From contig JBIQKJ010000004.1 in NCBI GenBank assembly GCA_044506615.1, positions 134,383-198,382 on the forward strand: DNA of 64,000 nt, in the 5' to 3' direction. The notes under the pieces were generated by a model that was not told the DNA's origin, ran no database searches, and was given only the letters and a program-made list of their open reading frames with translations. Of the stretch, positions 7,471-57,742 are shown one piece after another. This DNA comes from Chloroflexota bacterium. Its GTDB lineage: Bacteria > Chloroflexota > Limnocylindria > Limnocylindrales > CSP1-4. Positions within the stretch are counted from its first letter, which is position 1. Each line of letters starts with the position of its first letter. The translations under genes and the position numbers were made by a program.

Positions 7471-7474
7471 CCGA

Positions 7475-9459: not shown

Positions 9460-9624
9460 CGGTTTGTGTACAAGAGGCGCTTCAGTGGATACATCTTACT
9501 CACTGTAGCGCGGGTCGCACCCGGCCGCACGTCTCCTGAGGGACGGCGCGCTGTCCCGTGATATGCATACAATCCGGTTCATGTTGGACACCATTCGGGC
9601 CGCGTCCGTGCGAGGAGCGACCTC

Positions 9625-10335
9625 GTGACCGAACCGCGCATCTGGGACGCGTATCTCACCGAGCGCGACCGGGCGTACACCGCGGCCCACCCGACCCGCC
9701 GGAAGGGCGCCGGCACGCGGCCGTGCCTGCTGCTCCTGGACCTGTACCGGGGCGCCTTCGGCGACTTCCCCGAGCCACTGCTCGAGGCCGTGCGCAGCTG
9801 GCCGGCGAGCTGCGGTGAGGCAGGCTGGGAGGCACTGCCGTCGATCCGGCAGGTCCTCGACGCTGCCCGCGCGGCGGGCATCCCCGTGATCCACTCGACG
9901 GGGCTCGGCGACGTCCCCGCGTGGGGGCAGGGAAATCCGCGCAACCCGGGCTCCGGTGGGCCCGCGGACGAGGCCACGTTGGATCGGCAGCGCCGCAAGT
10001 ACGAGATCATCGATGAGGTCGCCCCGCTGGACGGCGAGCTCGTGGTCCGGAAGGCGGCGCCGAGCGCCTTTTGGGGCACGCCCCTGCCGGGGCTCCTGGT
10101 CGGCCTCGGGATCGACACGCTGGTGGTCGTCGGGGAGACAACGAGCGGATGCGTTCGTGCGACGGTGGTCGACGGGCGGAGCCACCGCTACAGGATCATG
10201 ATCCCGGAGCCGTGCGTGTTCGACCGGACGGAGGCAAGCCACGCGCTGAGCCTCTACGACATGGACCAGAAGTACGCCGACGTCGTCCCGTTGCAGGCGG
10301 TCCTGGACTACCTCGCGGGGTTCCGCCCGGCCTGA
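9625..10335 (+). CDS. isochorismatase-family cysteine hydrolase (amidase-type)
   Basis: 236 aa with catalytic triad context LLLLDLY (Asp), VRKAAPSAF (Lys) and GETTSGCVRATV (Cys). GTG start. Confidence 0.8.
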   Translation: MTEPRIWDAYLTERDRAYTAAHPTRRKGAGTRPCLLLLDLYRGAFGDFPEPLLEAVRSWPASCGEAGWEALPSIRQVLDAARAAGIPVIHSTGLGDVPAWGQGNPRNPGSGGPADEATLDRQRRKYEIIDEVAPLDGELVVRKAAPSAFWGTPLPGLLVGLGIDTLVVVGETTSGCVRATVVDGRSHRYRIMIPEPCVFDRTEASHALSLYDMDQKYADVVPLQAVLDYLAGFRPA

Positions 10336-13595: not shown

Positions 13596-13970
13596 GTGCC
13601 CACAGGAGTTCGGTTGGAAGCGATCTGGTACATCCTGGGCTTCGCCTTCGCCGGCGTGTCCTTCGTGTTCCTCACGATCGGCGCGGCGTGGCTCGTGTCC
13701 CACCGGACGCGCGGTGACGAGCACAAGGGCCTTCCCTACGAGTCCGGCATCGACACCTACGGCGACACCCACGGACGCTTCGGTCTCTCCTTCTACATCT
13801 ACGCGCTGCTCTTCGTCGCGTTCGACATCGAGGTGGTCTTCCTGTTCGTCTGGGCCCTCACGTTCGACGACCTGCTGCTCGGCGGGTTCATCAGCATGGC
13901 GATCTTCGTGATCGTGCTGCTCGTCGGCCTCGCCTACGCCGTCCGGAAGGGGGCGCTGACGTGGCATTGA
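13596..13970 (+). CDS. nuoA: NADH-quinone oxidoreductase subunit A
   Basis: Three TM segments plus the conserved PYESGI...F...FY..ALLFV.FD.E..FL motif. An alternative TTG start at 13614 has AGGAG 5 nt upstream. Confidence 0.9.
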
Positions 13971-14668
13971 ATCCGGACGGCGCGCCCGAGACCGCGGGCG
14001 GCATCGTCGTGGCCGAGCCGGCCGACCTGACCGAGCCGCTCATCGTCCCCAACACCCTCTGGCAGTCGCCCCACCCGAACGCGTACGCCAACGCGCTGGG
14101 CCCGGCCAACGACCACCTGCGCGAGCTCGAGGAACACGGGGTCGGGCGGCGCGACGACGCCCGCTGGGGCGGCCCGCTCGAGGTCATCCCCACCAAGGCC
14201 GACTACGTCCTCGACCTGATCCGGATGAACTCGCTCTGGCCGCTGCTGTCGGGCCTAGCCTGCTGCGCGATCGAGATGATGTCGTCCGCGACGTCGAAGA
14301 ACGACATCGACCGCTTCGGCCACTTCCCGTTCCGCGCCTCGCCCCGCCAGGCGGACGTGCTGATCGTCGCGGGCACGCTGACGACCAAGATGGCCGGCCC
14401 GCTCATCCGGCTCTGGGAGCAGATGCCCGAGCCGAAATGGTGCGTGGCGATGGGCGACTGCACGTGCTCGGGCGGTCGCTACAAGCGGAGCTACTCGACG
14501 ATCGAGGGCATCGACCGGGTCATGCCGGTCGACGTCTACGTCCCCGGCTGCCCGCCCCGTCCGGAAGGGCTGATCTTCGCGATGATGAAGCTCCAGCAGC
14601 TCGTCAAGCAGCGCCGCGGCCACTGGCCCGAGCGGATGATCGGGCCGAACGTCCCGGAGGGCGTCTGA
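13961..14668 (+). CDS. nuoB: NADH-quinone oxidoreductase subunit B (N2 cluster)
   Basis: [17 protein letters not shown] and VPGCPPRPE cysteine motifs, with an approximately 60-aa N-terminal extension. GTG overlaps the nuoA stop by 10 nt. Confidence 0.9.
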
Positions 14669-14670
14669 CC

Positions 14671-15240
14671 GTGGATCGCCGCTTCAAGGCGCGCCTGGAG
14701 GCGCGCTTCGGTGACCAGTTGCTCGGACCGGTCCGGCAGCGCCACGATCAGACCGAGATCCGGATCGGGCCCGGCGACGTCGTGCCCGTCCTGACGACGC
14801 TCCATGACGACCCCGAGCTCCGGTTCGAGTTCCTCGCCGACCTGTGCGGCGTCGACACGGGCGACGCGATGCAGGCCGTCTACCACCTCTGGAGCGACGT
14901 GACGCCCGACTGGCTCCGCGTCATCGTCGACGGGCTGTCCCGCGAGGACCCGCGCGTGCCCTCGCTGACCTTCCTGTGGAAGGGCGCCGAGTGGATGGAG
15001 CGCGAGGCGTACGACATGTTCGGGATCATCTTCGAGGGCAACCGCGACCTGCGGCGCATCTACATGCCGCCCGACTACTCGAGCTTCCCCCTCCGCAAGG
15101 ACTTCTACCTCGCCGACGACGCGGCCCGCTCCCCGGGCGCCGGCATCCGACACATGGAGCAGACCCATCTCCCGGTGAACACGCCGTCGGCGGCGATCCG
15201 CCGCACGCCGGCCGCTCGCCAGCTGCCGCCAAGCCGATGA
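14671..15240 (+). CDS. nuoC: NADH-quinone oxidoreductase subunit C
   Basis: 189 aa from GTG at 14671. Conserved WKGAEWMEREAYDMFGIIFEGN..LRRI segment. Confidence 0.85.
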   Translation: MDRRFKARLEARFGDQLLGPVRQRHDQTEIRIGPGDVVPVLTTLHDDPELRFEFLADLCGVDTGDAMQAVYHLWSDVTPDWLRVIVDGLSREDPRVPSLTFLWKGAEWMEREAYDMFGIIFEGNRDLRRIYMPPDYSSFPLRKDFYLADDAARSPGAGIRHMEQTHLPVNTPSAAIRRTPAARQLPPSR

Positions 15241-16457
15241 CGACGACGACCCCGCGTCCTTCCGCCGACGACCCCCGCGTCCTGCTCGAGCAGGAGGTCG
15301 GGGTGTTCGAGCCGGTCCCGCCGTACCCGCCCCGCACCGAGCGGGAGGCCGAGTTCTACACGCTCGGCGACGGCCAGATGTTCATCAACATGGGTCCGCA
15401 GCACCCGTCGACCCACGGCGTGCTCCGGGTCGTGCTGAAGATCGAGGGCGAGAACGTCGTCGACCTCGACCCCGTGCTCGGCTACCTCCACCGGGGCGTC
15501 GAGAAGCTGTGCGAGAACTCGGACTACCACCAGGTCATCAGCCAGGTCGACCCGCTCGAGTACGTCAGCGCCCTGTTCAACGAGTGGGGCGCCGTCGCCT
15601 CGTTCGAGAAGCTGCTCGACGTCCAGGTCCCGCGCCGCGCCGAGTACATCCGCGTCCTGTCGTCCGAGCTCAACCGGGTCGCGAGCCACGCCCTGTTCAT
15701 GGGCTGGATGGCGCTCGACCTCGGCGGGCTGACGCCGATCCTGTGGTCGTTCATCGAGCGCGACGAGATCGTCGAGATGCTCGCGTCGCTCACCGGCCAG
15801 CGGATGCTCTTCAACTACTTCCGGATCGGCGGCGTCAACGGCGATCTCAACCACGACTTCATGAGCAGGCTCGGGGACTGGATGAGCCGGGCGACCGAGC
15901 AGATCGAGGCCAACGCCGGGCTGCTCAACGAGAACGAGATCTTCGTCCGTCGCATGCGGGGTCTCGGCACGATCGACACGAAGACCGCGCTCCGCATGTG
16001 CTTCACCGGACCGAACCTGCGGGCGACCGGTGTGCCGTTCGACGTCCGCCGGGCACACCCGTACTCGGTCTACCCCGAGCTCGACTTCGACATCCCCACT
16101 CGGAGCGAAGGCGACTGCCTCGCGCGCTACCTGCTGCGCGTCGACGAGATCAAGCAGAGCCTCCGGATCATCGACCAGTGCCTCCACGAGATGCCCGACG
16201 GGCCGATCATGGCCAAGCTCCCGCGCCTGCTGCGCCCGCGCCCGGGCCGCGCCTACAGCGCCGTCGAGTCGCCGCGCGGCCAGTACGCGACGTACGTCGT
16301 CTCGGACGGCACCGACCAGCCGTACCGCATGCGCATCCACGACCCGTCGTTCATCCACCTGCAGTCGGTCGGGCTGCTCATGGAGGGGCAGCTGATCGCC
16401 GACACCATGGCGATCATGGCGAGCCTCGATCCCATCATGGGCGGGGTCGACAAGTGA
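15237..16457 (+). CDS. nuoD: NADH-quinone oxidoreductase subunit D
   Basis: 406 aa with an ATGA overlap to nuoC. NMGPQHPSTHGVLRVVL, GYLHRGVEKL and the C-terminal DPIMGGVDK. Confidence 0.9.
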   Translation: MTTTTPRPSADDPRVLLEQEVGVFEPVPPYPPRTEREAEFYTLGDGQMFINMGPQHPSTHGVLRVVLKIEGENVVDLDPVLGYLHRGVEKLCENSDYHQVISQVDPLEYVSALFNEWGAVASFEKLLDVQVPRRAEYIRVLSSELNRVASHALFMGWMALDLGGLTPILWSFIERDEIVEMLASLTGQRMLFNYFRIGGVNGDLNHDFMSRLGDWMSRATEQIEANAGLLNENEIFVRRMRGLGTIDTKTALRMCFTGPNLRATGVPFDVRRAHPYSVYPELDFDIPTRSEGDCLARYLLRVDEIKQSLRIIDQCLHEMPDGPIMAKLPRLLRPRPGRAYSAVESPRGQYATYVVSDGTDQPYRMRIHDPSFIHLQSVGLLMEGQLIADTMAIMASLDPIMGGVDK

Positions 16458-16632
16458 TCGTGGCACGACCTCCGGCGTGTCGCAGGACGGCCGATCGCTG
16501 CGTTGCCCGCTCCGCTGCTCGCTCACGCACGCCGCAGTGCGCTCGCTTCGCTGCTCGCGGGCGCCTTGCGCTCGGCTCGTCCGGCGACACGCAAGGCGGT
16601 TCGGCGCGGCCTGATCTTCGGGTGGTGACGGC
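16458..16632 (+). other. 175-nt structured non-coding spacer inside the nuo operon, at the position where nuoE-F-G normally sit
   Basis: No plausible ORF. A 9-bp inverted repeat CGCCTTGCG(16562-70)/CGCAAGGCG(16590-98), a GCCCGC...GCGGGC pair flanking 16507-16560, and a repeated CGCTGCTCGC motif. Confidence 0.5.
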
Positions 16633-18003
16633 ATGACGGTCATCGGGCGCTCCTGGAACCGGCTGACGCTGCCCGGGAAGATCGTCTTCACGGCCGTTCC
16701 GATCCTGCTCGCGCTGACGGTCGGGCTCATCGCCGCGGTCGCGATCCTCGGCGGACCGGCGCTCGACCTGCTCGCCGCGAACCTGCCGATCGTCCGGTTC
16801 GTCGTGGCCGCGACGGTCATCCTGCTGATGACCGTGCCGACGGCGTTCCTGATCATCTACATGGAGATGAAGATCATCGCGCTGATGAACCTCCGGATCG
16901 GCCCGGACCGGGTCGGCCCGTGGGGCTCGCTGCTGTCGGTGGTCCACGGCCTCAAGGTCCTCATGAAGGAGGACTTCACGCCGACCGGCGCGGACGCGCT
17001 CGTCTTCACCTGGGCGCCGGTCGTGGTGTACCTGACGAGCGTGATGACGCTGCTCGTGATCCCCTTCGGACCCGGGCTGGTCGGACAGCACTTCGACCTC
17101 GGCCTGCTGTACTTCTTCGCGATCAGCGGCCTGTCGGTCGTGGGCCTGCTGATGGGCGGCTGGGCGAGCTTCAACAAGTACTCGCTGCTCGGCGGCCTGC
17201 GCTCGGCCGCCCAGGTCGTGAGCTACGAGATCCCGCTCGTGCTGTCGGTCGTCGGCATCATCATGATCGCCGGGACGATGGACCTCGACGTGATCGTCCG
17301 CAACCAGGCCGGCTGGTTCACCGACTGGTACATCTGGCAGCAGCCGCTCGGCGCACTGATCTTCTTCATTGCCGCGACCGCCGAGGCGAACCGCACGCCG
17401 TTCGACCTCACGGAGGCCGACTCGGAGATCGTGGCCGGCTTCGCCACCGAGTACTCCGGCATGCGCTTCGGCTTCTTCTTCTTCGCCGAGTACGTCAACG
17501 TCTTCATCATCTCGGCGCTCACGGTCACGCTCTTCTTCGGCGGCTGGAACGCGCCGTTCGCGTGGCCGGAGGCCTGGGCGATCAACCTGTCGCTCGATCC
17601 GGGCTCGCTCGGGATCGGCCTGCTGCTGCTCGTCCTCGTGGCGCCCGTCGTCCTGACCCTGATCTTCGCGATCCCGTTCTGGCTGGCCAGCTCGCGGGTG
17701 AAGGGTTGGCAGGCGCTGGTCGCGGGGTTCGTGCTCGCCAACCTGTTCATCGTCGGCGCGATCATCGGCGCCGGCTGGATCGGGTTCGAGTGGGTCGCCG
17801 GGGTCGTCTGGTTTATGCTCAAGACGTACCTGTTCGTGTTCACGTTCGTCTGGATGCGCGGAACCCTGCCCCGGGTGCGCATCGATCAGCTGATGAACTT
17901 CGCCTGGAAGTGGTTGATGGAGCTGGCGTTCCTCAACATCTTCATCACGGCGGCCGCGATCATCGTCATCAAGACCCTGAACCCCGAGGCACTGCCGCGA
18001 TGA
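16633..18003 (+). CDS. nuoH: NADH-quinone oxidoreductase subunit H
   Basis: 456 aa, multi-TM. Conserved MEMKIIALMNLRIGPDRVGPWG, LMKED, EANRTPFDL.EADSEIVAGF.TEYSGMRF and MRGTLPRVRIDQLM. Confidence 0.9.
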   Translation: MTVIGRSWNRLTLPGKIVFTAVPILLALTVGLIAAVAILGGPALDLLAANLPIVRFVVAATVILLMTVPTAFLIIYMEMKIIALMNLRIGPDRVGPWGSLLSVVHGLKVLMKEDFTPTGADALVFTWAPVVVYLTSVMTLLVIPFGPGLVGQHFDLGLLYFFAISGLSVVGLLMGGWASFNKYSLLGGLRSAAQVVSYEIPLVLSVVGIIMIAGTMDLDVIVRNQAGWFTDWYIWQQPLGALIFFIAATAEANRTPFDLTEADSEIVAGFATEYSGMRFGFFFFAEYVNVFIISALTVTLFFGGWNAPFAWPEAWAINLSLDPGSLGIGLLLLVLVAPVVLTLIFAIPFWLASSRVKGWQALVAGFVLANLFIVGAIIGAGWIGFEWVAGVVWFMLKTYLFVFTFVWMRGTLPRVRIDQLMNFAWKWLMELAFLNIFITAAAIIVIKTLNPEALPR

Positions 18004-18680
18004 GCTTCATCCCCGGGCTCGGGATCGTGAAGGGAATGGGTGTCACCCTTCGCCGGTTCTTCGAGCCCAAGGCCACGATCAAGTACCCCGAGGAGCGGGC
18101 CGACGTCGCGCCGCGCTTCCGCGGCCGCCTCCAGCTGCTCTACGACGAGTGGGGCACGCTCAAGTGCGAGACCTGCTTCCAGTGTGCGCAGGCCTGCCCC
18201 ATCGAGTGCATCGACATGGGCGGGATCGACACCCGCGGTCGCTACCACGTCCATTGGGGCCCGCCCGAGACGTACGACGAGCGGCGCGAGGAGTCCGCGC
18301 TGCGCCGGTCGGGGCGACCCGTGCCCGATCCGAAGTTCACCCACTTCCAGCCCGTCGACCTGGCGGCGGTCGACGCGGTCCTCGAGGACTACGACCACGA
18401 TCCGAAGGCGCTCCTCCCGATCCTCGAGGGCGTCCAGGCCGCCTACGGCTACCTCCCGGTCGCGGCGATCAAGCGGATCAGCCAGAAGACCGGCGCCTGG
18501 TACGCCTACATCTACGGGACCGCGTCCTACTACAAGCACCTCCGGTTCGAGCCGGCGATGGACGAGACCCAGGCGGCGGCGATGGACGCGCTGCGGCCGA
18601 ACGAGGCGTCCTACCTGGCCGCATTCGACGCCGCGCTGCGGACCGGCGGCGCGGGCTCCGGCTCGCAGGCTCGAGCGTAA
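18000..18680 (+). CDS. chimeric subunit: N-terminal half of NuoI (one 4Fe-4S motif) fused to a NuoE-like N-terminal helical domain that has no cysteines
   Basis: 226 aa with an ATGA overlap to nuoH. Residues about 1-75 (IKYPEERADVAPRFRGRLQL...KCETCFQCAQACPIEC) match the NuoI N-half. Residues about 110-170 (DPKALLPILEGVQAAYGYLPVAAIKRISQKTGAWYAYIYGTASYYKHLRFEP) match the NuoE N-terminal domain. There are no further Cys residues. Confidence 0.75.
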   Translation: MSFIPGLGIVKGMGVTLRRFFEPKATIKYPEERADVAPRFRGRLQLLYDEWGTLKCETCFQCAQACPIECIDMGGIDTRGRYHVHWGPPETYDERREESALRRSGRPVPDPKFTHFQPVDLAAVDAVLEDYDHDPKALLPILEGVQAAYGYLPVAAIKRISQKTGAWYAYIYGTASYYKHLRFEPAMDETQAAAMDALRPNEASYLAAFDAALRTGGAGSGSQARA

Positions 18681-18685
18681 CCGGG

Positions 18686-20008
18686 ATGCAGCGGCTCTCG
18701 ACGCCGGCCGATTGGCCGACGATCCTCCTCGCTCGCGCCGACGCCCCCGATCCGACCGATCTCGACGCCGCGGCCCGCGCCGGCGCGTTCGAGGGGCTGC
18801 GCATCGCCGTGCGCGACCTCGGGCCGACCGGCGTGATCGCGACCGTCGGGGCGTCCGGGCTCCGCGGGCGCGGCGGTGCCGGGTTCCCGGCCGCCGACAA
18901 GTGGCGTGCCGCGACCGCGGTCGAGGCGCCGCGCCGCTACGTCGTCGCCAACGGCTACGAGGCCGATCCCGCCGCATTCACCGACCGCACCCTGCTCGCC
19001 CGCGACCCGTTCGCTGTCGTGGAGGGGACGCTCATCGCCGCCTACGCCGTCGGTGCGGCCGAGGCATTCATCGCGGTTCGTGCCGGCGAGACCGAGATCG
19101 TGCGCGGCCTCGAGGCCGCGATCGCGGCGGCGGAGGAGGCCGGCTTCGCCGGACCCGACGTCCTCGGCTCCGGCCACGACATCGATGTCCACGTCCGCCC
19201 GGTGCAGGGCGCCTACATGCTCGGCGAGGAGACCGTCCTGCTCAAGGCGCTCGAGGGCCGACGCGGCCAGCCCGAGCAGCGCCCGCCGTACCCGGCCACG
19301 CGCGGCCTCTTCGACATGCCGACGGTCGTCCAGAACGTCCAGACCCTCGCGCTCGTCCCGTGGATCGTGCGCCACGGCGCACCCGCGTTCGCCGGGATCG
19401 GCGCACCCGGGAGCCCGGGCACGGCCCTCGTCCAGGTCCGGACCGGGGCCGGCGAGGGCATCGCGGAGGTTCCGCTCGGGACGCCGCTGCGCGACCTGCT
19501 CGGGCTCGCCGGGCCGCTCCCCACGAGCCCCGCGCTCAAGGCGATGCTGATCGGCGGCCCGTCGGGCGGCCTGCTCCCGGCGGACCTGCTCGACACGCCG
19601 TACGACTTCCGCGCGCTGCGCGACGCCGGGGCCCATGTCGGCTCGGGATCGATCGTGGTCGCCGACGAGCGCGCCTGCGTTGTCGACCTGGCCCGGCTGC
19701 TGACCCGCTTCTGCTCGAACGAAGCCTGTGGCAAGAGCATCCCGTGCCGCATCGGCACCCGCCGCCTGGTCGAGATCGCCGACCGGATGGCCGAGGGGAC
19801 GCCCCGCCGGAACGACCTGACGACCCTGGCCGACCTGTCCGCCGACATCGTCGGCTCGGGCCTGTGCGACCACGAGCGCCTGACGACGCTCCCGCTCGAG
19901 AGCGGGATGCGATACTTCAGGTCCGAGCTCGACGATCACCTCCTCCGCAGCTCCTGTCCTGCCGGCGTCTGTCACCCGATCGCGGTGACGGCCGGTGCGG
20001 CCCACTAG
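18686..20008 (+). CDS. nuoF: NADH-quinone oxidoreductase subunit F-like (FMN/NADH-binding)
   Basis: 440 aa. GLRGRGGAGFPAADKW, ANGYEADP, GAYMLGEETVLLKALEG, and an N3-region EACGKSIPCRIG...GLCDHE in which the second Cys of the canonical CxxCxxC is Ser. Confidence 0.85.
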   Translation: MQRLSTPADWPTILLARADAPDPTDLDAAARAGAFEGLRIAVRDLGPTGVIATVGASGLRGRGGAGFPAADKWRAATAVEAPRRYVVANGYEADPAAFTDRTLLARDPFAVVEGTLIAAYAVGAAEAFIAVRAGETEIVRGLEAAIAAAEEAGFAGPDVLGSGHDIDVHVRPVQGAYMLGEETVLLKALEGRRGQPEQRPPYPATRGLFDMPTVVQNVQTLALVPWIVRHGAPAFAGIGAPGSPGTALVQVRTGAGEGIAEVPLGTPLRDLLGLAGPLPTSPALKAMLIGGPSGGLLPADLLDTPYDFRALRDAGAHVGSGSIVVADERACVVDLARLLTRFCSNEACGKSIPCRIGTRRLVEIADRMAEGTPRRNDLTTLADLSADIVGSGLCDHERLTTLPLESGMRYFRSELDDHLLRSSCPAGVCHPIAVTAGAAH

Positions 20009-20016
20009 CGAGACCC

Positions 20017-22662
20017 ATGGCCGACCTGATCACGCGCCCCGAGACCACAGCACCAGAGCGAACCCCCGCCGCCACGCCGGAGGCACTGGCCGAGCGCCTG
20101 CTCGAGACGCAGTCGCCGCAGCGACCGCAATCGACGCCGCGGATCCGGATCGAGGTCGACGGCCGGGTCATCGAGGGCTCCGAGGGCCAGACGATCCTCG
20201 AGGTCTGCCGCGACAACGGGATCGAGATCCCGACCCTGTGCTACGAGCCGAAGCTCGAGGGCTTCGGGGCGTGCCGGATGTGCGTCGTCGACGTCGAGGG
20301 CGAGGAGCACCCGCCGATCAGCTGCTCGCGCACCGCCGAGGGCGGCATGAAGGTCCAGACCCAGACCGAGGAGATCCGTCGGATGCGGCGGACGAACCTC
20401 GAGCTGATCTTCAGCGACCACAACGCCTACTGCCTGCCGCCCTGCCAGAACAAGTGCCCGAGCCACATCGACATCCCGGGCTTCCTCAAGGCGAACGCCG
20501 AGGCGGACTGGCGCGAGGGCGCCCGGATCTTCAAGCGGACGATCCCCTTCCCGTCGATCCTCGGCCGCGTCTGCCCGGCACCGTGCGAGGAGCACTGCCG
20601 CCGCGACGAGGTCGACGAGGCGATCGCGATCCGGGACAGCCACCGCTACCACGGCGACCAGGTCCTGCGCCAGATGCTCGACGAGGGCATCGATCCGCCG
20701 ATCCCGTTCGAGCGCAAGCCCGCGACCGGCCGCAAGGCGGCGGTCATCGGGTCCGGCCCGGCCGGAATGAGCGCCGCCTACTACCTGCTGCTCAACGGCC
20801 ACGACGTGACGGTCTTCGAGCGCGACCCGGCGCCCGGCGGCATGCTCCGCTACGGCATCCCGCAGTACCGGCTGCCGAAGGTCGAGGTGCTCGAGGCGGA
20901 GTACGAGTCGGTCACCCGGCTCGGCGGCAAGATCGTCTGCAACGCCGAGCTCGGCAAGGACTACACGCTCGACGACCTGACGAACCAGGGCTTCGGCGCG
21001 GTGGTCGTCGCGATCGGCTGCTACGACACGAACAAGCTCGGGATCCCGGGCGAGGACGCGGCCGAGGTGCTCGACGGCCTGGAGTACCTGCGGACCGCCA
21101 CGCTCGGCCTTCCCTACCCGGATCACGTCGGCAAGCGGGTGGTCGTCATCGGCGGCGGGTTCACGTCGATGGACTGCGTCCGCACGTCGGTCCGCCAGGG
21201 CGCGACCGAGGTCACGCTCGTCTACCGGCGTGACATGAAGGACATGCCCGCCGCCAACGAGGTCCACGAGGCCATCGAGGAGGGCGTGACCGCCATCTTC
21301 CAGGCCGGGCCTGTCCGGGTCATCACCGACGACGCCGGCACGGTGACCGGGGTCGAGTTCATCCGCATGCGCCTCGGCGAGCCGGACGCCTCCGGCCGTC
21401 GCCGCCCGGAGCCCGCTCCCGGGACCGAGTTCACGATCCCGTGCGACCGCGTGCTCCTCGCGATCGGGCAGGGCCCCGACCTGTCGTGGGTGGGACCCGG
21501 CTCGGAGGGCGTCACTGCGACCCGCAACCGCCGCCTCCAGGCCGACGCGGTCACGTTCGAGACCGGCCGCCCCGGTGTCTTCGGGACCGGCGACGTGCGG
21601 GTCGGAGCGGCGACGGTCGTCCAGGCGATCGCCGAGGGCCGCCGTGCGGCGTACGCGGTCGACGCCTACCTGCGCGGACAGGACCTCGCCGCGATCCGGA
21701 CGCGCCAGACGCTGGCCGAGCCGCAGCCCGAGTTCCTCTCGATCGTCCCGTTCACGAGCGAGGTCAAGGAGCCGCGCTACCGGCTCACCTCGATGGACGC
21801 CGACGTCCGGAACAAGAGCTACGTCGAGTACGAGCTGCCGTACACGCGCGAGGAGGCGGTCGCCGAGTCGACCCGCTGCCTCCAGTGCACGTGCGAGGCG
21901 ATCGGGTTCTGCGATCTCCGACGGCTCGGCATCGAGTACGGGACGACGCTCCAGACGCTCGAGCCGCAGTACCACGACGGCGCCGGCTATCGGAGCGTGA
22001 CCGAGAACCGGTTCACCGGCGTCAACCACGACTACATCCGCGACGACAGCCACGCGTTCATCCTGCGCGAGCCGTCGCGCTGCATCGACTGCGGCCGCTG
22101 CGCGAACGTCTGCGCCGAGGTCGTCGGCGCCGCCTGCTACGACTTCATGCGGATCGGCTTCGACACGCTCGTGACGACCCCGCTCGACATGAGCCTCAAC
22201 GACACGCCGTGCGTGTCCTGCGGCCGGTGCGCGGAGACCTGTCCGACCGGCGCGCTCATGCCGAAGCCGCGCGTGCTCCAGAAGTACGAGGTCGACGAGA
22301 GCCGCTGCATCCTGTGCGGGATCTGCGTCGATGCGTGCCCCTACGACGCGCTCCGCGACGGCGCCGACATCGAGCTCGCGAGCACCAGCCGCGAGCAGCC
22401 GATGATCGACCTCATCGCGCTCTCGGCGATCAACCGCGAGACCGAGGTCACGTACATCCGCCGTGAGGCCGACTGGGCGACGCGCGCCGCCGCCGAGGGC
22501 CGGCTCATCGACGCGGGCCGGATGCTGCCGGTCCTGCCGGCGGGCGTGACCGGCGTCGCGACCGGCAACGGGCACGGCGGCAACGGGCACGGCGGCAACG
22601 GGCACGGCGGCAACGGGCACGGCCACGCCGGGGGTGGCTCGGCCCACGCCCACCAGAAGTAG
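20017..22662 (+). CDS. chimeric subunit: NuoG-type [2Fe-2S]/His-Cys3 N-terminus, GltD-like FAD/NAD(P)H oxidoreductase, NuoG-type 4Fe-4S motifs, C-terminal half of NuoI, and a (GNGHG)4 His-rich tail
   Basis: 881 aa. Motifs in order: [17 protein letters not shown]...ISC; [15 protein letters not shown]; [13 protein letters not shown]; [48 protein letters not shown] and [13 protein letters not shown] (two Rossmann sites, GltD-like); [11 protein letters not shown] and [16 protein letters not shown]; [24 protein letters not shown]...DIELAS (NuoI second motif). No molybdopterin-like C-terminal NuoG domain. Confidence 0.75.
22564..22623 (+). repeat. perfect 15-bp tandem repeat x4 (GGCAACGGGCACGGC) encoding (GNGHG)4 at the C-terminus of the NuoG/GltD chimera
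   Basis: Four identical head-to-tail copies read directly from the sequence, in frame, followed by [12 protein letters not shown]-stop. Confidence 0.95.
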
Positions 22663-22673: not shown

Positions 22674-23264
22674 GTGCGGACGCTGATCCCGATCCTCATC
22701 GCCCTCGCGATCCTCGGCGCCGTCACCGGCGTCGCGGTGCTGATGCTGGTCCTGCTCGGGCAGGACTGGCCCGACGTCCTGCTGTGGCTGTTCGCCGCGG
22801 TGATGCTCGGGTCGGCGCTGCTGGTCGTGACGATGCGCGACATCATCCGCTGCGGCCTGGCGATGATCGTGTCGTTCGGCGCGCTCGCCGGGATCTACGC
22901 GCTGCTCGGCGCGCCGCTCCTCGCGGCCACCCAGGTCATCGTCTACATCGGCGCGATCAGCGTGCTGATCCTGTTCGCGATCATGCTCACGCAGACGAAG
23001 GATGCGCCCCGCGTGCTCGTGTTCCAGACCCAGGTCGCGGGCGCGGCCGTGGCGTCGATCCTCGTGGCGGTCATCATCGCGCTCGCCGTGACCGCCACCG
23101 ACTGGCCCACCGCGGCCATCGGGGAGTGGCTCGAGACGTCGGTGCTGTCGAGCGTGCTCTTCAACGAGAACCTGCTGCCGTTCGAGGTCGTCGGCGTGCT
23201 GCTGCTCGCGGCCGTGGTCGGCGGCGTCTTCATTGCGAAGCGCGAGCCGGGAGGGCCGGCGTGA
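22674..23264 (+). CDS. nuoJ: NADH-quinone oxidoreductase subunit J
   Basis: 196 aa, 5 TM segments. [22 protein letters not shown] and the position between the G-like gene and nuoK. Confidence 0.85.
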
Positions 23265-23587
23265 GCCAGTCGCTCGACACGTACCTCGTGCTGTCCGGCG
23301 TGCTGTTCGCGATCGGCACGTTCGGCTTCCTCGCCCGCCGGAACGCGATCAGCATGCTCATGTCGATCGAGCTCATGCTCAACGCGGTCAACCTCGCGAT
23401 CGTTGCGTTCGCGGCGTTCGGGGCGTTCGGCGGCAGCGACGCTGACATCGCCCGTGGTTCGGTGATCGCGCTGATGGTCATCGCGGTCGCCGCGGCGGAG
23501 GCGACCGTCGGGCTCGCGATCGTCATCGCCATCTACCGCAACCGCCGGACGCCGCTGGTCGACGAATACGACGCGATGAGCCAATGA
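23261..23587 (+). CDS. nuoK: NADH-quinone oxidoreductase subunit K
   Basis: 108 aa with a GTGA overlap. [35 protein letters not shown]...[12 protein letters not shown]. Confidence 0.9.
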
Positions 23588-25596
23588 CCGACCTGCCCTG
23601 GGGGACCTTGATCCCGCTCATCCTCGGGCTGCCGATCGCGGGCTTCGCGATCACCGCAGCGATCGGGCGTCGGCTGGGCAAGGCCGCGCACTGGATCCCC
23701 GTCCTCGCGGTCGTCGGCGCGTGGGTCATCTCGATGCTCGCGGCCTACGCGGTGCTGACCGGCGCGGCGCCGGTGCTCGAGGGGACCGACGAGGCGCACG
23801 GCTTCGCGGTCCACCTGTTCGAGTGGATCCCGGCCGGCACGTTCTCGGTCGACGTCGGCTTCCTCGTGGACTCCTTGACCGCCTGCCTGCTGATCGTCGT
23901 CACGACGATCGGCCTGCTGGTCCACATCTACTCGATCGGGTACATGGGCCACGACCCGGGGTACTGGCGCTTCTTCGCCTACCTCAACCTGTTCATGTTC
24001 TCGATGCTGCTGCTGGTCCTCGCGGACAGCTGGCTCGTGGTGTTCGTGGCCTGGGAGCTCGTCGGCCTCTCGAGCTACCTGCTCATCGGCTTCTGGTACC
24101 GCAAGAACTCGGCCGCCCTGGCGAGCAAGAAGGCCTTCCTCGTCAACCGCGTCGGTGACGTCGGGTTCGCGCTGGGGATCATGGCGATCTTCGCGAACAC
24201 GCTCGCCATGGGCGACCCGACCCTCGACATCCGCCACTCGATCGAGCTGCTGACCGCAGAGGGCGCCGAGCTGCTCGTGCCGCTCCCGATCGTCGCGCTG
24301 CTGCTGTTCGCCGGCGCGATGGGCAAGAGCGCGCAGTTCCCGCTCCACGTGTGGCTGCCCGACGCCATGGAGGGCCCGACCCCGGTGTCGGCGCTCATCC
24401 ACGCCGCGACGATGGTCAACGCCGGCGTCTACCTCGTCGCCCGTGCCAACTACCTGTTCGCCCATTCGGCCGAGGCGATGGTGATCGTGGCCTCGATCGG
24501 CATCTTCACCGCGATCCTCGCGGCGTCGATCGCGTTCACCCAGACCGACATCAAGCGCGTGCTCGCCTACTCGACGCTGAGCCAGCTCGGCTACATGTTC
24601 GCGGCGCTCGGTGTCGGCGCCTTCACCGCGGCGATCTTCCACCTCATGACCCACGGCTTCTTCAAGGGGCTGCTGTTCCTCGGCTCGGGCTCGGTGATCC
24701 ATGCCGTCCACGAGGAGCAGGACATGCGCCGGATGGGTGGGCTCCGCCGGAAGATCCCGATCACCTACTGGACGATGCTGATCGGCTCGGTGGCGATCGC
24801 CGGCATCCCGCCGCTCGCGGGGTTCTTCTCGAAGGACGAGATCCTCGGCGAGGCCTTCAAGCTCGGGTTCCAATGGGTCTGGGCGATCGGGATCATCGTC
24901 GCGATCATGACCGCGTTCTACATGTTCCGGCTCGTCGGCCTGACGTTCTGGGGCGACTTCCGCGGCCCGCGCGAGGTGTGGGACCGGATCCACGAGTCGC
25001 CCGCCGTGATGACCGTGCCGCTGATCCTGCTCGCGATCCCGTCGGCATTCATCGGGCTCGCGCTCGGGCTGCCGCTCGGCGACAGCGTCATCCACCACTG
25101 GCTGGCACCGATCTTCGACGAGGGTGTGCACCACATCGAGGAGCTGCGCGGGGTCGAGGTCCCCGTCTACAACCTGCTCGGGATCGACGGCTTCCTGATC
25201 GGCGCCAGCGTGGCCGTTGCCGTCGCGGGCATCCTGGCGGCGTGGCGCTTCTTCGGCGTCGAGCTCGACGGGCTTCGCCGGCGCGGCAACCCGGAGGCGG
25301 TTCGCGCCTGGACCGCGCGCCTGCCGTTCCTCTATCGCGGATCCCTCAACAAGTGGTGGTTCGATGACCTCAACCACCTGCTGTTCATCGTGATCGGCGG
25401 CCGCGTGGCGGCCTTCCTGTGGTGGTTCGACCGGGTCGTCGTCGACGGCACCGTGAACGGGGTCGGCAACCTCACGGTGGGTGCCGGCCGCGGGCTCCGT
25501 CACGTCCAGACCGGGCGCGTCCAGAACTACGCGCTCGGCATCGCGTTCGGGCTGATCGTCATGGCCGGCTCGTACCTCATCCTGGCAGGCCGATGA
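23584..25596 (+). CDS. nuoL: NADH-quinone oxidoreductase subunit L
   Basis: 670 aa antiporter-like subunit. [47 protein letters not shown], and a C-terminal lateral-helix region. Confidence 0.9.
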
Positions 25597-27248
25597 CCAT
25601 CGACGTCGCCTCGATCCCGATCCTCTCGATCGTCACGTTCCTGCCGCTGGTCGGGGCAGTCGTGCTGGCGCTCCTGCCGGCGAGCGCGGCGCGGCCGGTG
25701 GCGCTCGTCACGGCGCTCTTGACGTGGGCCGTCTCGCTGATCCTGCTCGTCGGCTACGCCCCGACCTCGCCGGGCTTCCAGTTCGAGGAGGAGATCGGCT
25801 GGATCCCGCTGTTCGGGATCGAGTACAAGCTCGGGATGGACGGCCTGTCGGCCGCGCTCGTCGTGCTGACGACGACGCTGACGTGGATCTCGATCCTCGC
25901 CAGCTGGCACCCGATCCAGCACCGGATCAAGGAGTACATGGTCTCGTTCCTCGTGCTCGAGGTCGGGATGATCGGCGTGTTCCTCGCGGCCGACCTGTTC
26001 CTGTTCTACATCTTCTGGGAGGTCGTCCTCGTCCCGATGTACCTGATCATCGGGATCTGGGGCGGCGCCAACCGGATCTACGCGACGATCAAGTTCGTCC
26101 TCTACACGCTCGTCGGGTCGCTGCTGATGCTCGTCGCGATCCTCGCGACCGCGTTCACCTACCAGTCGACGACCGGGTCGTGGGAGAACGCCTTCGACTT
26201 CGAGACGCTGCGCGCGTTCGCGCTGACCGGCGGCGGCTTCCCGCCGGAGCTCCAGATCGGCGCCTTCCTCGCGTTCTTCCTCGCGTTCGCGATCAAGGTC
26301 CCGATGTTCCCGTTCCACACCTGGCTGCCCGACGCGCACACCGAGGCGCCGACGGCCGGCTCGGTGATCCTGGCGGGGGTGATGCTCAAGCTCGGCGGGT
26401 ACGGCCTGCTGCGCTTCGCGCTCCCGCTCTACCCGGACGCGGCGCACACGTTCGCGCCGGTGATCATCGTGCTGTCGCTGATCGGGATCATCTACGGGGC
26501 GATCGTGGCGCTCGTCCAGCCCGACCTGAAGAAGCTCGTCGCGTACTCGTCGGTCAGCCACATGGCGTTCGTGACGCTCGGGATCTTCGTGTTCACGGAG
26601 CAGGGCATCCAGGGCGCGGTGCTCCAGATGATCAACCACGGCCTGATCACCGGCGGCCTGTTCCTCATGGTCGGCGTGATCTACGAGCGGACCCACGACC
26701 GAACGATCGCGAAGATGGGCGGGCTCGCGGCGCGCGTCCCCGTCTGGGTGGCGGTCTTCGGGTTCTTCTGCTTCGCCTCGGCCGGGCTGCCGGGCCTGTC
26801 CGGCTTCGTCGGCGAGTTCCTCACGCTCGTCGGCGCGTTCGTGGCCAACCCGTGGATCGCGGTCGTGGCCGCGTTCGTCATGGTCCTCGCCGCCGCCTAC
26901 CTGCTGTGGATGTTCCAGCGGATCGCGTTCGGCGAGGTCTCGGCCTTCCTCCAGGGTCTCGGCCACCACCTCACCGACATGACGCCGACCGAGATCCTGA
27001 CGCTCGCCCCGCTCGCCGCACTGGTGGTCGCGTTCGGCATCTTCCCGGGCCTCGTCCTCGACCTGTTCCCCGGCGCAGTGGCCGATACGCTCGAAAGCGC
27101 CGAGGCGGGCAGCGCGATCGCCGTGCCGACCGAGCTCGTGCTCGGGCTGATCGGGCTGCTCGTCGCCGGGATCCTTGCCCGCATCGTGTACGTGGCCCTC
27201 CTCGAGCGGTCGCCGTCGCTCGAGCCCGACGCGGGAGCCGCCCGATGA
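25593..27248 (+). CDS. nuoM: NADH-quinone oxidoreductase subunit M
   Basis: 551 aa with an ATGA overlap. FYIFWEVVLVPMYLIIGIWGG, KVPMFPFHTWLPDAHTEAPTAGSVILAGVMLKLGGYG. Confidence 0.9.
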   Translation: MTIDVASIPILSIVTFLPLVGAVVLALLPASAARPVALVTALLTWAVSLILLVGYAPTSPGFQFEEEIGWIPLFGIEYKLGMDGLSAALVVLTTTLTWISILASWHPIQHRIKEYMVSFLVLEVGMIGVFLAADLFLFYIFWEVVLVPMYLIIGIWGGANRIYATIKFVLYTLVGSLLMLVAILATAFTYQSTTGSWENAFDFETLRAFALTGGGFPPELQIGAFLAFFLAFAIKVPMFPFHTWLPDAHTEAPTAGSVILAGVMLKLGGYGLLRFALPLYPDAAHTFAPVIIVLSLIGIIYGAIVALVQPDLKKLVAYSSVSHMAFVTLGIFVFTEQGIQGAVLQMINHGLITGGLFLMVGVIYERTHDRTIAKMGGLAARVPVWVAVFGFFCFASAGLPGLSGFVGEFLTLVGAFVANPWIAVVAAFVMVLAAAYLLWMFQRIAFGEVSAFLQGLGHHLTDMTPTEILTLAPLAALVVAFGIFPGLVLDLFPGAVADTLESAEAGSAIAVPTELVLGLIGLLVAGILARIVYVALLERSPSLEPDAGAAR

Positions 27249-28732
27249 CCGCCGACGACCTCGTCACGACGGCGCCGTTCATCGCGGCGGTGCTGACCGC
27301 GATCGCGGTCCTCGTCGTCGACCTCGCGGTACCGAACCGCACGAAGCTCGCCGTTGCGACGTCGATGGTGGGTCTCGCGATCGCCGCCGCGCTCGTCGTG
27401 CTCATCGGCGTCGACCGGCCCCCGGCGTTCGGAGGCGCCTACGTCGCCGACGCGTTGACCGCGTTCCTCCAGCTCCTGCTGATCGCGATCGTCGCGATGA
27501 GCATCCTGTTCGGGCCCGACTACCTGCGCCCGCGCAACCTGCCGGTCGCCGAGTTCGCGACGGTCCTCATCTTCGCGCTGACCGGCGCGATGCTGATCTC
27601 GGCGTCGGGCGACCTCCTGATCCTGTTCATCGCGCTCGAGCTGATGGTGCTGCCGGGCTACCTGCTCGCGGGCTACCACAAGACCGACGCCTACTCGACC
27701 GAGGGCGCGATCAAGTACTTCCTGCTCGGCTCGTTCAGCTCTGCGATCTTCCTGTTCGGGCTCGCGTTCGTGTGGGGCATGACCGGGACGACGAGCATCG
27801 CCGGCGTCGCCGAGCGCCTCCAGGAGATTGTCGCGGGGACCGCGCTCCTCCAGCCCGGCCTGGCGCTCGGCCTCGCGCTGATGACGACCGGCGTGGCCTT
27901 CAAGATCGCGGCGGTCCCGTTCCACTACTGGACCCCGGACGCCTACCAGGGCTCGCCGACCCCCGTCACGGCGTACCTGTCGACCGGCCCGAAGATCGGC
28001 GGCTTCGCGCTGATCCTGCGCCTGTTCGTCGACGGGCTGTGGCCGCTCGCCGACTGGTGGCTGCCCGTCGTCATCGTCCTCGCCGCGATCACGATGACGC
28101 TCGGCAACCTCGTTGCGCTGACCCAGGACAACGTCAAGCGGATGCTCGCCTACAGCTCGATCGCCCACACCGGGTACATGCTCGTCGGGCTCGCGGCGTT
28201 CGGGGCCGGGCGGCTCAGCGGCCTCGAGGGGCTGCTGTTCTACGGAGCGGCGTACGCGTTCATGAACCTCGGCGCGTTCGCGGTCGTCGCGGCGCTCCAG
28301 AAGCGGGCCGGCGTCACCTCGCAGCTGACCACCTTCGCCGGTCTCGGGCGGCGCGAGCCGGTGCTCGGCGCGATCATGCTGCTGTTCCTGCTGTCGCTGA
28401 CCGGGATCCCGCCGCTGGCCGGCTTCTGGGCCAAGGTCTACATCATCATCGCCGCGGTCGAGGAGGGCGGCTGGCTGACGTTCCTCGCGGTGCTGACCGT
28501 GCTCAACGCCGCCGCGGCCGCCTTCTACTACCTGCGGGTCGCCGTGTACATGTACATGCGGGACCCGGCGAGCGAGGCGCCGGCCCAGCGCCACGGCTGG
28601 CTGCTGTGGGGCGGCCTCGCGGCCGCGACCGCGTTGACGATCCTGTTCGGCGTCCTGCCGAACTCCCTCCTCGACGCGGTGAAGGTCGCCGTCGAGAACC
28701 TGTCGAGCGTCGGCGCCCAGGCGCTCCGCTAG
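27245..28732 (+). CDS. nuoN: NADH-quinone oxidoreductase subunit N
   Basis: 495 aa with an ATGA overlap. ELMVLPGYLLAGY, FKIAAVPFHYWTPDAYQGSPTPVTAYLS. Confidence 0.9.
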   Translation: MTADDLVTTAPFIAAVLTAIAVLVVDLAVPNRTKLAVATSMVGLAIAAALVVLIGVDRPPAFGGAYVADALTAFLQLLLIAIVAMSILFGPDYLRPRNLPVAEFATVLIFALTGAMLISASGDLLILFIALELMVLPGYLLAGYHKTDAYSTEGAIKYFLLGSFSSAIFLFGLAFVWGMTGTTSIAGVAERLQEIVAGTALLQPGLALGLALMTTGVAFKIAAVPFHYWTPDAYQGSPTPVTAYLSTGPKIGGFALILRLFVDGLWPLADWWLPVVIVLAAITMTLGNLVALTQDNVKRMLAYSSIAHTGYMLVGLAAFGAGRLSGLEGLLFYGAAYAFMNLGAFAVVAALQKRAGVTSQLTTFAGLGRREPVLGAIMLLFLLSLTGIPPLAGFWAKVYIIIAAVEEGGWLTFLAVLTVLNAAAAAFYYLRVAVYMYMRDPASEAPAQRHGWLLWGGLAAATALTILFGVLPNSLLDAVKVAVENLSSVGAQALR

Positions 28733-49957: not shown

Positions 49958-49981
49958 CTGGGGAACGGCTCCTGCACGAGC

Positions 49982-57412: not shown

Positions 57413-57742
57413 TTATACGCGGGGCGGGTTGCGCCGGACGCGGATCCGAAGCTCGCGCACCCCGACGCCGCCGGGTGCCGCGGCAAAGGCCGCGAGCAGC
57501 TCGGTCGAGCGCAGCCGGAGCTCCTGGGCGACGATCGGCGCGTCGGTCTCGACGTCGAGCGCGAAGCCTTCGATGCCCACCACCCGACACGCGCCGCTGG
57601 CCGCCGGGACGCGCTCCTCGACGAGTGCCTCGAACGTGGCAATCGCTCGGGACAGCCGGAGCTCGTCCTCGAGCCCGAGCGCCCGCGCGGTCTCCGGCAT
57701 GAGGTCGCCGATGCGGACCATCGGCCGTCGCCGCGAGCTCAC
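57413..57742 (-). CDS. dciA: DUF721 protein (DciA-type helicase-loader family), conserved downstream of recF
   Basis: 109 aa with a GTGA overlap to the recF stop. The pattern GDLMPETARALGLEDELRLSRAIATFEALV...VVGIEGFALDVETDAPIVAQELRLRSTELL matches DUF721, and the recF-DUF721 synteny is typical of Actinobacteria. Confidence 0.65.
   Translation of the reverse strand: MSSRRRPMVRIGDLMPETARALGLEDELRLSRAIATFEALVEERVPAASGACRVVGIEGFALDVETDAPIVAQELRLRSTELLAAFAAAPGGVGVRELRIRVRRNPPRV

Follow-up and report, generated by a model that had tools for sequence, protein, structure and literature searches.

In a 64-kb window (64,000 nucleotides of contig JBIQKJ010000004.1, positions 134,383 to 198,382) from a Chloroflexota bacterium of the Limnocylindria, we examined a 13-gene operon for respiratory complex I with the order nuoA-B-C-D-H-[I(N)::E(N)]-F-G*-J-K-L-M-N, where G* is an 881-amino acid (aa) iron-sulphur (Fe-S) flavoprotein encoded at the place of nuoG. 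We propose that, in this complex, a reduced module of the Nfn/Stn type (Bfu family) probably replaces NuoE, NuoF and NuoG, and that a NuoI subunit split into two halves attaches it to the quinone module. The gene architecture is secure. Regarding function, we infer an NADH/NADPH:quinone oxidoreduction with proton pumping, a dual input of NADH and NADPH being the reading that would best suit the genes. An initial annotation of the same DNA had spoken of 11-subunit nuo operons; the 13 genes found here include those derived from nuoE, nuoF and nuoG, and no intact nuoI is among them.

A StnC/NfnA-type flavoprotein inside a complex I operon

With a G+C content of 72%, the window is filled with long spurious open reading frames (ORFs). 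A third-position GC frame plot revealed one coding frame over 19951-22650, and the gene of G* was placed at 20017..22662, from an ATG at 20017 to a TGA at 22662, on the + strand, like all the genes of the operon. A longer ORF starting at 18040 was rejected as a high-GC out-of-frame read-through.

StnC and NfnA proteins consist of a 2Fe-2S N-terminus, an inserted GltD/NfnL domain for NADPH and flavin adenine dinucleotide (FAD), a set of clusters of the NuoG/HydA type and an inactive formate dehydrogenase (Fdh)-like domain (PMC10482914, PMC11829005). Results showed that aa 42-776 of G* align in one stretch with NfnA of Caldicellulosiruptor (9bov_A, E 2.6e-162), StnC of Sporomusa ovata (8oh5_C, E 3.1e-148) and NfnA of Thermococcus sibiricus (9n5u_A), with identities of 36-46% and well outside what chance would give, the alignment ending at residue ~700 of the ~1175 of these proteins. 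StnC/NfnA proteins were also the top matches when the structural model of G* was searched with Foldseek, as in the PDB sequence search. The NuoG model TIGR01973 gave 97 bits against a cut-off of 470, and only aa 45-143 matched it (positions 1-98 of 606). The best NCBIfam model was NF009454 (PRK12814, 'putative NADPH-dependent glutamate synthase small subunit'), which covered aa 43-702 with 559 bits, below its cut-off of 916. Judged from these comparisons, G* belongs to the StnC/NfnA lineage and is not a NuoG modified by an insertion, and the 'NuoG-like' identity given to it by the initial annotation needs to be changed. An architecture of 'NuoG with embedded GltD' is already known; what differs here is the C-terminus and the genomic setting.

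As first annotated, G* starts with an N1b-type 2Fe-2S domain (aa 42-117, 20140..20367; Pfam Fer2_4, E 5.5e-20), equivalent to cluster A1, which was modelled with a predicted local distance difference test (pLDDT) score of ~90 and whose four cysteines (Cys75, 86, 89 and 103) are 100% conserved. The His-Cys3 site reported behind it exists (aa 134-148), although not as a plain N5 site: it is the invariant hybrid motif H135-x3-C139-x3-C143-x3-C147-P (20419..20460), which marks where the NuoG-like part gives way to the inserted GltD, and its partner is a second invariant motif, C621-x2-C624-x-C626-x5-C632 (21877..21912). The two patterns, HxxxCxxxCxxxCP and CxxCxCx4-5C, have been proposed to be scars of GltD integration in the NsoC/StnC family (PMC7483475). 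The Pfam model of the NuoG 4Fe-4S_3 domain matched with its first 17 positions only (aa 124-140), and C147 aligns with Cys108 of Csac NfnA, a ligand of cluster A7.

The following GltD/NfnL-like module (aa ~139-560, 20431..21696) matched Pfam Fer4_20 (aa 139-217) and Pyr_redox_2 (aa 240-541) and aligned with NfnB, NfnL and GltD proteins with E values of 1e-68 to 1e-77. It contains two 4Fe-4S sites (C186, C190 and C194, with H209 where StnC/NfnA have the ligand Lys170), a putative FAD site (GSGPAG and a further motif), a putative NADPH site (GGGFTSMD and YRR) and a GTGD sequence. The full GltD-type module of the initial annotation was recovered with every motif quoted there, and alignment found the FAD/NAD(P)H motifs of the region intact. 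The motif set GxGxxG, GG(M/L)LxYGIP, GGGxTAxD, YRR and GD is complete and invariant in the relatives of G*, GGGxTxxD and YRR being kept in 120/120 Limnocylindria relatives.

Beyond the module, the cysteine motifs had been read as NuoG-type 4Fe-4S motifs. This applies to motif A (C689/692/695/699) and motif B (C732/735/738/742), which form a 2x[4Fe-4S] region of the HydA/NuoG type (22081..22245) corresponding to clusters A2 and A4 of NfnA; a third motif, at aa 764-779, is of the NuoI type and is described below. The 2x[4Fe-4S] region aligns with StnC, HydA and Nqo3 (2fug_3 residues 117-288), contains the N4-type pattern CxxCxxC...CP in the form of the invariant C689/692/695 and C742, and 4Fe-4S dicluster models of Pfam matched at aa 725-780. 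Every Cys or His proposed as a cluster ligand in G* is invariant in the aligned relatives. A molybdopterin domain had been noted as missing, and indeed G* gave no Pfam match to one and contains no CxxCGxGC motif before it ends at aa 881. With respect to structure, AlphaFold2 with 28 close homologues gave a mean pLDDT of 31.7, and a model made from 74 sequences of Limnocylindria and Thermoleophilia was good only for aa 40-560. The modelled GltD/NfnL module reached a pLDDT of 85-95 and was matched by Foldseek to NfnI-L (TMt 0.77, root-mean-square deviation 3.4).

NuoI is divided between two chimeric proteins

A search for an intact nuoI within the operon was negative. Between nuoH and the F gene lies a gene for a protein of 226 aa (18000..18680) that starts MSFIPGLGIVKGMGVTLRRFFEPKATIKYPEERADVAPRFRGRLQL and continues ...KCETCFQCAQACPIECIDM, which is the N-terminal half of NuoI/TYKY with one CxxCxxCxxxCP motif (C56/59/62/66). 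Its residues 9-73 aligned with residues 23-87 of the 169 of Arabidopsis TYKY and also matched residues 17-81 of the 163 of Paracoccus NuoI. The C-terminal half was found in G* (aa 752-802, 22270..22422), with motif C (C764/767/770/774-P) and the conserved tail, and aligned with residues 99-147 of TYKY and 93-146 of Paracoccus NuoI. Against the NuoI model TIGR01971, the first half matched positions 1-63 of 121 with 53.6 bits and the second positions 71-117 with 47.5 bits, so that neither passes the cut-off of 113. When both halves were concatenated in silico, they matched in one stretch, positions 1-117, with 104.5 bits, compared with ~50 bits for each alone. The complementarity of the halves and their single-stretch match once joined indicate that NuoI is split between the E-derived protein and G*. 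The corresponding pair of halves from the Thermoleophilia relatives described below gave 88.6 bits when concatenated.

A six-frame search for CxxCxxCxxxC in the 64 kb yielded five sites, three in G*, one in the 226-aa gene and one in a non-coding frame. G* would contain three such motifs because A and B form a pair, as they do in HydA and StnC, and the unpaired motif C would be partnered by the upstream protein. The alternative that B and C form a ferredoxin domain internal to G*, with no partner left for the NuoI half upstream, was judged less parsimonious, since A and B are paired in the solved homologues and motif C aligns to NuoI in register together with the upstream motif.

The rest of the 226-aa protein derives from NuoE. 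Its aa 117-186 correspond to the N-terminal helical domain of NuoE/StnA/NfnC (9bov_C 19-88; 8oh5_A 16-85), and the E-derived part covers only positions 2-63 of the 145 of the Pfam model 2Fe-2S_thioredx. The 226-aa protein has no thioredoxin-like 2Fe-2S domain and no Cys after aa 70, hence the site of cluster N1a/C1 is missing. Complete copies of this I(N)::E(N) fusion are 170-244 aa long, and all 68 of them carry exactly one Cys motif and lack the C-terminal domain of NuoE with C1. We rejected a frameshift or assembly artefact as the origin of the truncated NuoE and the split NuoI, given that 68-80 independent assemblies show the same gene boundaries, as do gene calls made independently. Taken together, the split NuoI, the truncated NuoE and the relocation of nuoH (16633-18003) directly before the fusion gene are, at the level of sequence, the strongest evidence that the flavoprotein would be physically part of complex I.

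Two further features of the fusion protein are worth recording. The linker between its parts (aa 75-116, RYHVHWGPPETYDERREESALRRSGRPVPDP) is nearly invariant in the clade, including His83 and His85, and is probably a structured interface and not a flexible tether. An extra Cys70 (CPIEC) is also conserved, and is absent in Thermoleophilia.

The F subunit is reduced to its core

F (440 aa, 18686..20008) is a subunit of the HydB/StnB type for flavin mononucleotide (FMN) and NAD(H), of which only the core is present. Its best matches in the PDB were NfnB (9bov_B, 3e-105) followed by HydB and StnB (1e-100), NuoF proteins of complex I being weaker (3.5e-87 to 1e-71). F aligns only to residues ~105-527 of the 584-630-aa NfnB, StnB and HydB proteins and thus lacks their N-terminal thioredoxin-like domain and their C-terminal 2x[4Fe-4S] (B3/B4) domain. 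It ends right after a vestigial CPAGVC. On two points concerning the partners of G* the initial annotation was right: G* stands next to an FMN-type NuoF homologue within a complex I operon, and the building blocks are those of soluble bifurcating enzymes, the three genes being homologous to StnA/B/C, that is, NfnC/B/A.

Cys343 of F, which lies upstream of the N3/B1 motif, is 90% conserved, and together with the terminal CPAGVCH it may be a remnant of the B2 zinc site of BfuB.

Relatives in Limnocylindria and Thermoleophilia

Relatives were scanned in one genome per GTDB species. Those of G* are encoded in at least 572 species-representative genomes. Gene order was analysed in the best 80 Limnocylindria genome loci, whose relatives are 82-89% identical to the window and among which loci on short contigs give a partial order only. 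A tblastn search with the window proteins found a sole order in the 80 loci, that of the window including the upstream methyltransferase gene. The chimera co-occurs with nuo operons in these other genomes, and in Thermoleophilia as well. The best 80 relatives are labelled Chloroflexota / Candidatus Limnocylindrales, except two (L055 and L068, 85-86% identical to the window) that carry the labels Polarisedimenticolia (Acidobacteriota) and Sulfomarinibacteraceae; these labels most likely result from contamination during binning of metagenome-assembled genomes and not from the true distribution. In databases, the proteins are annotated as 'FAD-dependent oxidoreductase', 'formate dehydrogenase major subunit', 'NAD(P)H-dependent oxidoreductase subunit E', 'ferredoxin' or 'hypothetical', and our analysis corrects this widespread mis-annotation.

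An exhaustive profile search of 1.84 billion representatives returned mostly soluble-type StnC/NfnA proteins of 1000-1270 aa. Among the best 150 representatives of clusters at 50% identity, fragments of the window lineage set aside, only one other, P0253 (816 aa, 44% identity), had the three motifs and the NuoI tail. Relatives of P0253 are labelled Thermoleophilia, and their loci read A-B-C-D-H-[I(N)::E]-F-G*-J-K-L-M-N, with the same split of NuoI. In these loci the E part is full length and keeps its four 2Fe-2S cysteines, and F is a complete protein of the HydB/StnB type (633-638 aa) with NADEGDPGAFMD, CGKCVPC and two C-terminal 4Fe-4S motifs. As Thermoleophilia keep the full NuoE and the full F, the window form appears to be a reduced derivative of an Nfn-Bfu-type complex I. 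Identities between the two lineages are 28-56% per subunit, which argues that what they share is old.

In a crude neighbour-joining tree built from 125 G* homologues (675 columns), Limnocylindria and Thermoleophilia each formed a group with a bootstrap value of 100%, and their union reached 23%. A single origin is consequently backed by gene order and the NuoI split, which are rare shared characters, and not by the tree.

Three of the Thermoleophilia loci (L081, at 7324-9998, L082 and L083) were noted as operons in which a complete Bfu-type core with B3/B4 motifs is combined with a split-NuoI complex I. The Thermoleophilia form is a candidate for a membrane-bound bifurcating/confurcating NADH/NADPH/ferredoxin:quinone enzyme.

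Comparison with known systems

The closest counterparts of G* are StnC and NfnA (8OH5, 9BOV, 9N5U; NsoC of T. litoralis), which have the same domain order up to aa ~775 of G* and whose partners StnA/NfnC and StnB/NfnB are homologous to the partner genes of G*. The differences are several. The ~450-aa inactive Fdh-like domain of StnC/NfnA, which holds 4Fe-4S cluster A5 with its CxxCxxxC motif and serves tetramerisation, is absent in G*, where half a NuoI stands instead; the Lys ligand of A7 is replaced by a conserved His (H209); and the partners of G* lack C1 and B3/B4, unlike those of Stn/Nfn. In addition, G* is encoded within a membrane complex I operon, whereas the Stn/Nfn enzymes are three-gene soluble enzymes of anaerobes.

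A membrane-bound relative has been predicted under the name Nuo-Bfu. In the part of Schut et al. 2022 (PMC9304861) on which we draw, this is a 14-subunit (A-N) complex I with BfuABC for NuoEFG and quinone as third substrate, assigned to Proteobacteria (Geobacter), Deferribacteres, Planctomycetes and Nitrospirae, a soluble 'Nfn-Bfu' being predicted separately. Nuo-Bfu and the system of the window have in common a Bfu-family module in the middle of the nuo operon in place of the canonical N-module, and both would be integral-membrane, proton-pumping Bfu derivatives. As described in the same portion of that source, Nuo-Bfu comes without mention of an NADPH/GltD domain or a split NuoI, and the passages on Chloroflexi deal with Mbh- and Por-type enzymes, not with Nuo; 'Actinobacteria' is a word absent from the whole paper. 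By the BfuB domain definition given there, F of the window would not count as a BfuB, having no ferredoxin-type domain.

Compared with canonical NuoG/Nqo3/NDUFS1, G* shares the N1b-like 2Fe-2S cluster, one N4-like 4Fe-4S cluster and the position after nuoF; it differs in the absence of the molybdopterin-like domain, in an N5 motif interrupted by a 420-aa flavoprotein insertion and in an extra 4Fe-4S cluster as in HydA. As for canonical NuoI/Nqo9/TYKY, the joined halves span the model, from the amphipathic region at the N-terminus and YPEE...RFRG over the two CxxCxxCxxxCP motifs to the C-terminal DxEx tail, yet they reside on two polypeptides, each fused to an N-module protein, and the loop between the motifs has been removed. 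Finally, the Mbx-like complexes of Thermotoga and proteobacteria, in which a GltD-related flavoprotein takes the place of NuoI (Degli Esposti 2015, PMC4758237), likewise pair an NAD(P)H flavoprotein of the GltD family with a membrane module that resembles complex I. These complexes, however, belong to an Mrp/Mbx hydrogenase-like lineage without NuoE/F or StnC-type Fe-S domains, and their GltD has been proposed as a site of NAD(P)+ reduction (PMC4758237).

A GltD-containing or NuoI-split complex I was not found in the full-text literature searched, a scope that leaves most subscription-journal papers outside. For the combination of three features we found no published description there: an Nfn-type BfuA on a nuo operon, the split NuoI and, in this lineage, the loss of N1a/C1 together with the accessory domains of BfuB.

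A predicted electron path and its alternatives

According to our proposal, electrons would enter as hydride at two sites: those from NADH would enter at the FMN of F and reach the 2Fe-2S cluster through an N3-like cluster, those from NADPH would enter at the FAD of G* and run through A7, A6 and A3, and both routes would converge at the N4-like cluster A2. The exit would lead from A2 through A4 and N6a/N6b to N2 in NuoB and then to quinone, driving a canonical proton-pumping membrane arm. From the alignments, the predicted ligands are C147, C186, C190 and H209 for A7 and H135, C139, C143, C194 and C621-C632 for A3 and A6, A2 and A4 would be bound by motifs A and B, and N6a and N6b would each be ligated by cysteines of both chimeras, the first motif being on I(N)::E(N) and the second on G*. 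The enzyme would then pump protons as an NAD(P)H:quinone oxidoreductase, and it might also catalyse transhydrogenation from NADPH to NAD+ on the side.

In NfnA/StnC, electrons follow the path FAD-A7-A6-A3-A2-A1(2Fe-2S)-B1-FMN, and a side branch A2-A4-A5 into the Fdh-like domain is a dead end (PMC10482914, PMC11829005). The NuoI half of G* starts ~10 residues past motif B, just where A5 and the Fdh-like domain would follow, and the A2-A4 branch that leads nowhere in the soluble enzymes may here become the exit. The C-terminal domain of canonical NuoG contributes to keeping the N-module attached to the Q-module. Its absence would plausibly be made up for by the double covalent tether of the two NuoI halves and, further, by the retained N-terminal anchor of NuoE. 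In NfnABC, the NuoE-type N-terminal anchor of NfnC sits in the cleft between NfnA and NfnB (PMC11829005).

Several observations weigh against this proposal. The spacing between motifs B and C would permit them to pair in a ferredoxin-like manner, and the Fe-S C-terminus of G* (aa 624-881) had a pLDDT below 50 in AlphaFold2. A P0253-like subclade of Thermoleophilia (12/120) is without the NADPH motif (GDGFAAAE, no YRR), which suggests that the GltD site is dispensable in some relatives. Moreover, F has two unusual motifs, at its aa 343-354 and 89-96. The N3/B1 motif reads CGK[T/S]IPC, the second Cys being absent in 76/76 sequences spanning the position, and loss of the second Cys in such a motif is the classic signature of a 3Fe-4S cluster. 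The FMN-site motif NADEGDPG has become NGY[G/E]ADPA, with Glu at the fourth position in the window and Gly in 67/73 relatives. Because of these substitutions, entry of electrons through NADH and FMN could be altered or weak.

Among the alternatives, the one that survives best reads the FAD/NADPH site as an output, at which NADPH would be supplied either by reverse electron flow from quinol driven by the proton-motive force or by an NADH-to-NADP+ transhydrogenase housed on complex I. Transhydrogenation by Stn/Nfn enzymes is reversible (PMC7483475, PMC10482914). An Fe-S wire that connects two reversible nucleotide sites would make such a reaction chemically unavoidable, and the NADPH site is strictly conserved in Limnocylindria. 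We nevertheless consider this reading unlikely, as the full set of proton-pumping antiporter-like subunits and the canonical Q site are in keeping with a respiratory enzyme that runs forward, the window gives no sign of a lithotrophy that needs reverse electron flow, and oxidation of NADPH is favoured by its cellular pool, which is usually more reduced than that of NADH.

The changes in F could alternatively mean that NADPH is the sole physiological donor and F a relic kept for structure, its FMN/NADH site or N3-like cluster being dead. One Cys of N3/B1 is lost in all relatives, two near-invariant acidic residues of the FMN site are changed, and NuoE is cut down to its anchor domain, all of which would suit a relic. 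On the other hand, the rest of the FMN/NADH signature (GRGGAGFP, KW, GAYxLGEET, PPYP and three cluster cysteines) is conserved throughout the clade, pointing to purifying selection on a working site, and had the cluster been lost there would be no obvious reason for F to be retained at full core length. The relic reading thus seems to us a shade less likely again.

The initial annotation had also considered a confurcating or bifurcating respiratory complex, in which NADH, NADPH and ferredoxin would be coupled to quinone as proposed for Nuo-Bfu. The genes of E, F and G* descend from the bifurcating Stn/NfnABC family, the Thermoleophilia relatives hold a complete BfuBC core (C1 Cys ligands, N-terminal domain of F and B3/B4 motifs), and membrane-bound Nuo-Bfu enzymes have been predicted in other phyla (PMC9304861, in the part consulted). 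The smallest set of cofactors that defines a bifurcation site in Bfu enzymes is B1-FMN-C1, to which B3/B4 are added for ferredoxin (PMC11829005 and the same part of PMC9304861). In the window lineage this site is incomplete, the C1 domain being gone in 68/68 copies and F lacking the ferredoxin-binding B3/B4, and the known non-bifurcating homologues are those without B2-B5 (PMC9304861, same part). No bifurcation is expected with C1 (the homologue of N1a) and B3/B4 absent, and for the window lineage we regard this option as improbable.

Last, it is very improbable that the juxtaposition is merely genetic, with a soluble Stn-like NAD(P)H oxidoreductase encoded beside a separate 11-subunit Nuo that has another donor: many bacteria do have an 11-subunit complex I without an N-module (PMC3144371, PMC4758237) and the automated annotations of G* as 'FAD-dependent oxidoreductase' or 'formate dehydrogenase major subunit' would agree with it, but the membrane and Q-modules here have no NuoI of their own, the sole NuoI sequence in the operon is divided between the E-derived and the G*-derived proteins, and this arrangement is kept in two phyla.

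Implications of a proposed complex I with an Nfn/Stn-family input

Complex I is among the most studied bioenergetic enzymes, and it is customary to regard its 14 core subunits and their cofactors as universal, the off-pathway cluster N1a among them. Complex I of the window type is common in soil Chloroflexota. In its widest form, our proposal is tentative and falls a little short of an even chance: Limnocylindria (Chloroflexota) and Thermoleophilia (Actinomycetota), both abundant in soil, would respire with an undescribed class of complex I, in which an Nfn/Stn-family input passes electrons through A2-A4 to N6a/N6b and not through N5 to N6a, and in which the NuoI clusters bridge two chimeras. 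The Limnocylindria form, without N1a and the pterin fold of NuoG, would pump protons while oxidising NADPH directly, the Thermoleophilia form would keep the full bifurcating core, and the two would represent living stages of an exchange between Bfu enzymes and the N-module.

If true, this would provide a natural complex I devoid of N1a and of the NuoG C-terminal domain, making the debated role of N1a directly testable. It would also mean an energy-conserving respiratory route for NADPH, with the consequence that models of redox balance would change for lineages of very high abundance in soil and fresh water. For the assembly and design of Fe-S proteins, it would be relevant that an essential ferredoxin subunit with two clusters is distributed over two polypeptides. 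Together with the unreduced Thermoleophilia version, the system would finally point to modular exchange between Bfu enzymes and complex I and bear on how the N-module was acquired.

The operon and its neighbourhood

The remaining genes of the operon encode the Q-module and a full membrane arm (A/H/J/K/L/M/N), the signatures of NuoB and NuoD being canonical. The genes nuoA (13596-13970) and nuoC (~14665-15240) were assigned by Pfam/NCBIfam, and nuoB (13961-14668), which has the N2 Cys motif, and nuoH scored above the curated cut-offs. In nuoD (~15240-16457), QHPSTHG and the quinone-site His/Tyr are present. Downstream of G*, nuoJ (22674-23264), nuoK (23261-23587), nuoL (23584-25596) and nuoM (25593-27248) were assigned by Pfam, and nuoN (27245-28732) by frame and start analysis, homology to the Thermoleophilia nuoN and synteny. 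From nuoH to nuoN the genes overlap or lie 5-11 nt apart, with 4-nt overlaps at J/K, K/L, L/M and M/N, a spacing that fits one operon. A 175-bp non-coding gap separates nuoD from nuoH (16458-16632) in this otherwise tight arrangement. A scan for promoters and terminators over 11.5-31 kb gave 0 promoter-like sites and 2 terminator-like sites (3.6 expected).

Some variation was observed in individual subunits. NuoH is unusually long, with 456 aa compared with 372 aa in Thermoleophilia; ~50 aa are added at its N-terminal end and ~90 aa at its C-terminal end. G* ends in a variable tail (22423..22659) of low conservation beyond aa ~845; the Gly/His-rich repeat at its end (22540-22659, aa ~842-881) differs from one relative to another and may be a metal-binding element. 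Gene calls in a few assemblies join G* and NuoJ in a single protein (P0062, of 1075 aa with PF00499; G* of up to 1124 aa), which may be either a true fusion or the product of a missed stop or frameshift.

Directly upstream of nuoA lies a gene for an NDUFAF7-like methyltransferase dependent on S-adenosylmethionine (PF02636; 11963..13261, + strand). NDUFAF7 is an assembly factor of mitochondrial complex I (bioRxiv 10.1101/2021.02.01.429150). The methyltransferase gene heads the order in 59/80 Limnocylindria loci, most of the others ending at contig ends, and Thermoleophilia loci have tatA/tatC upstream and not this gene. On the other side, nuoN is followed by a gene for a GT20 glycosyltransferase. 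Farther downstream, an ORF of ~2400 codons (stop to stop, 44558-51778, - strand) carries protein O-mannosyltransferase (PMT) domains towards its C-terminal end and is overlapped by an opposite-strand ORF with high G+C at third positions (49910-51445) that has no Pfam match. The genes recF, dnaN and dnaA stand in a row at 57739-61887 (- strand), which suggests that the replication origin is probably near 62 kb, with the nuo operon ~30-45 kb away from it.

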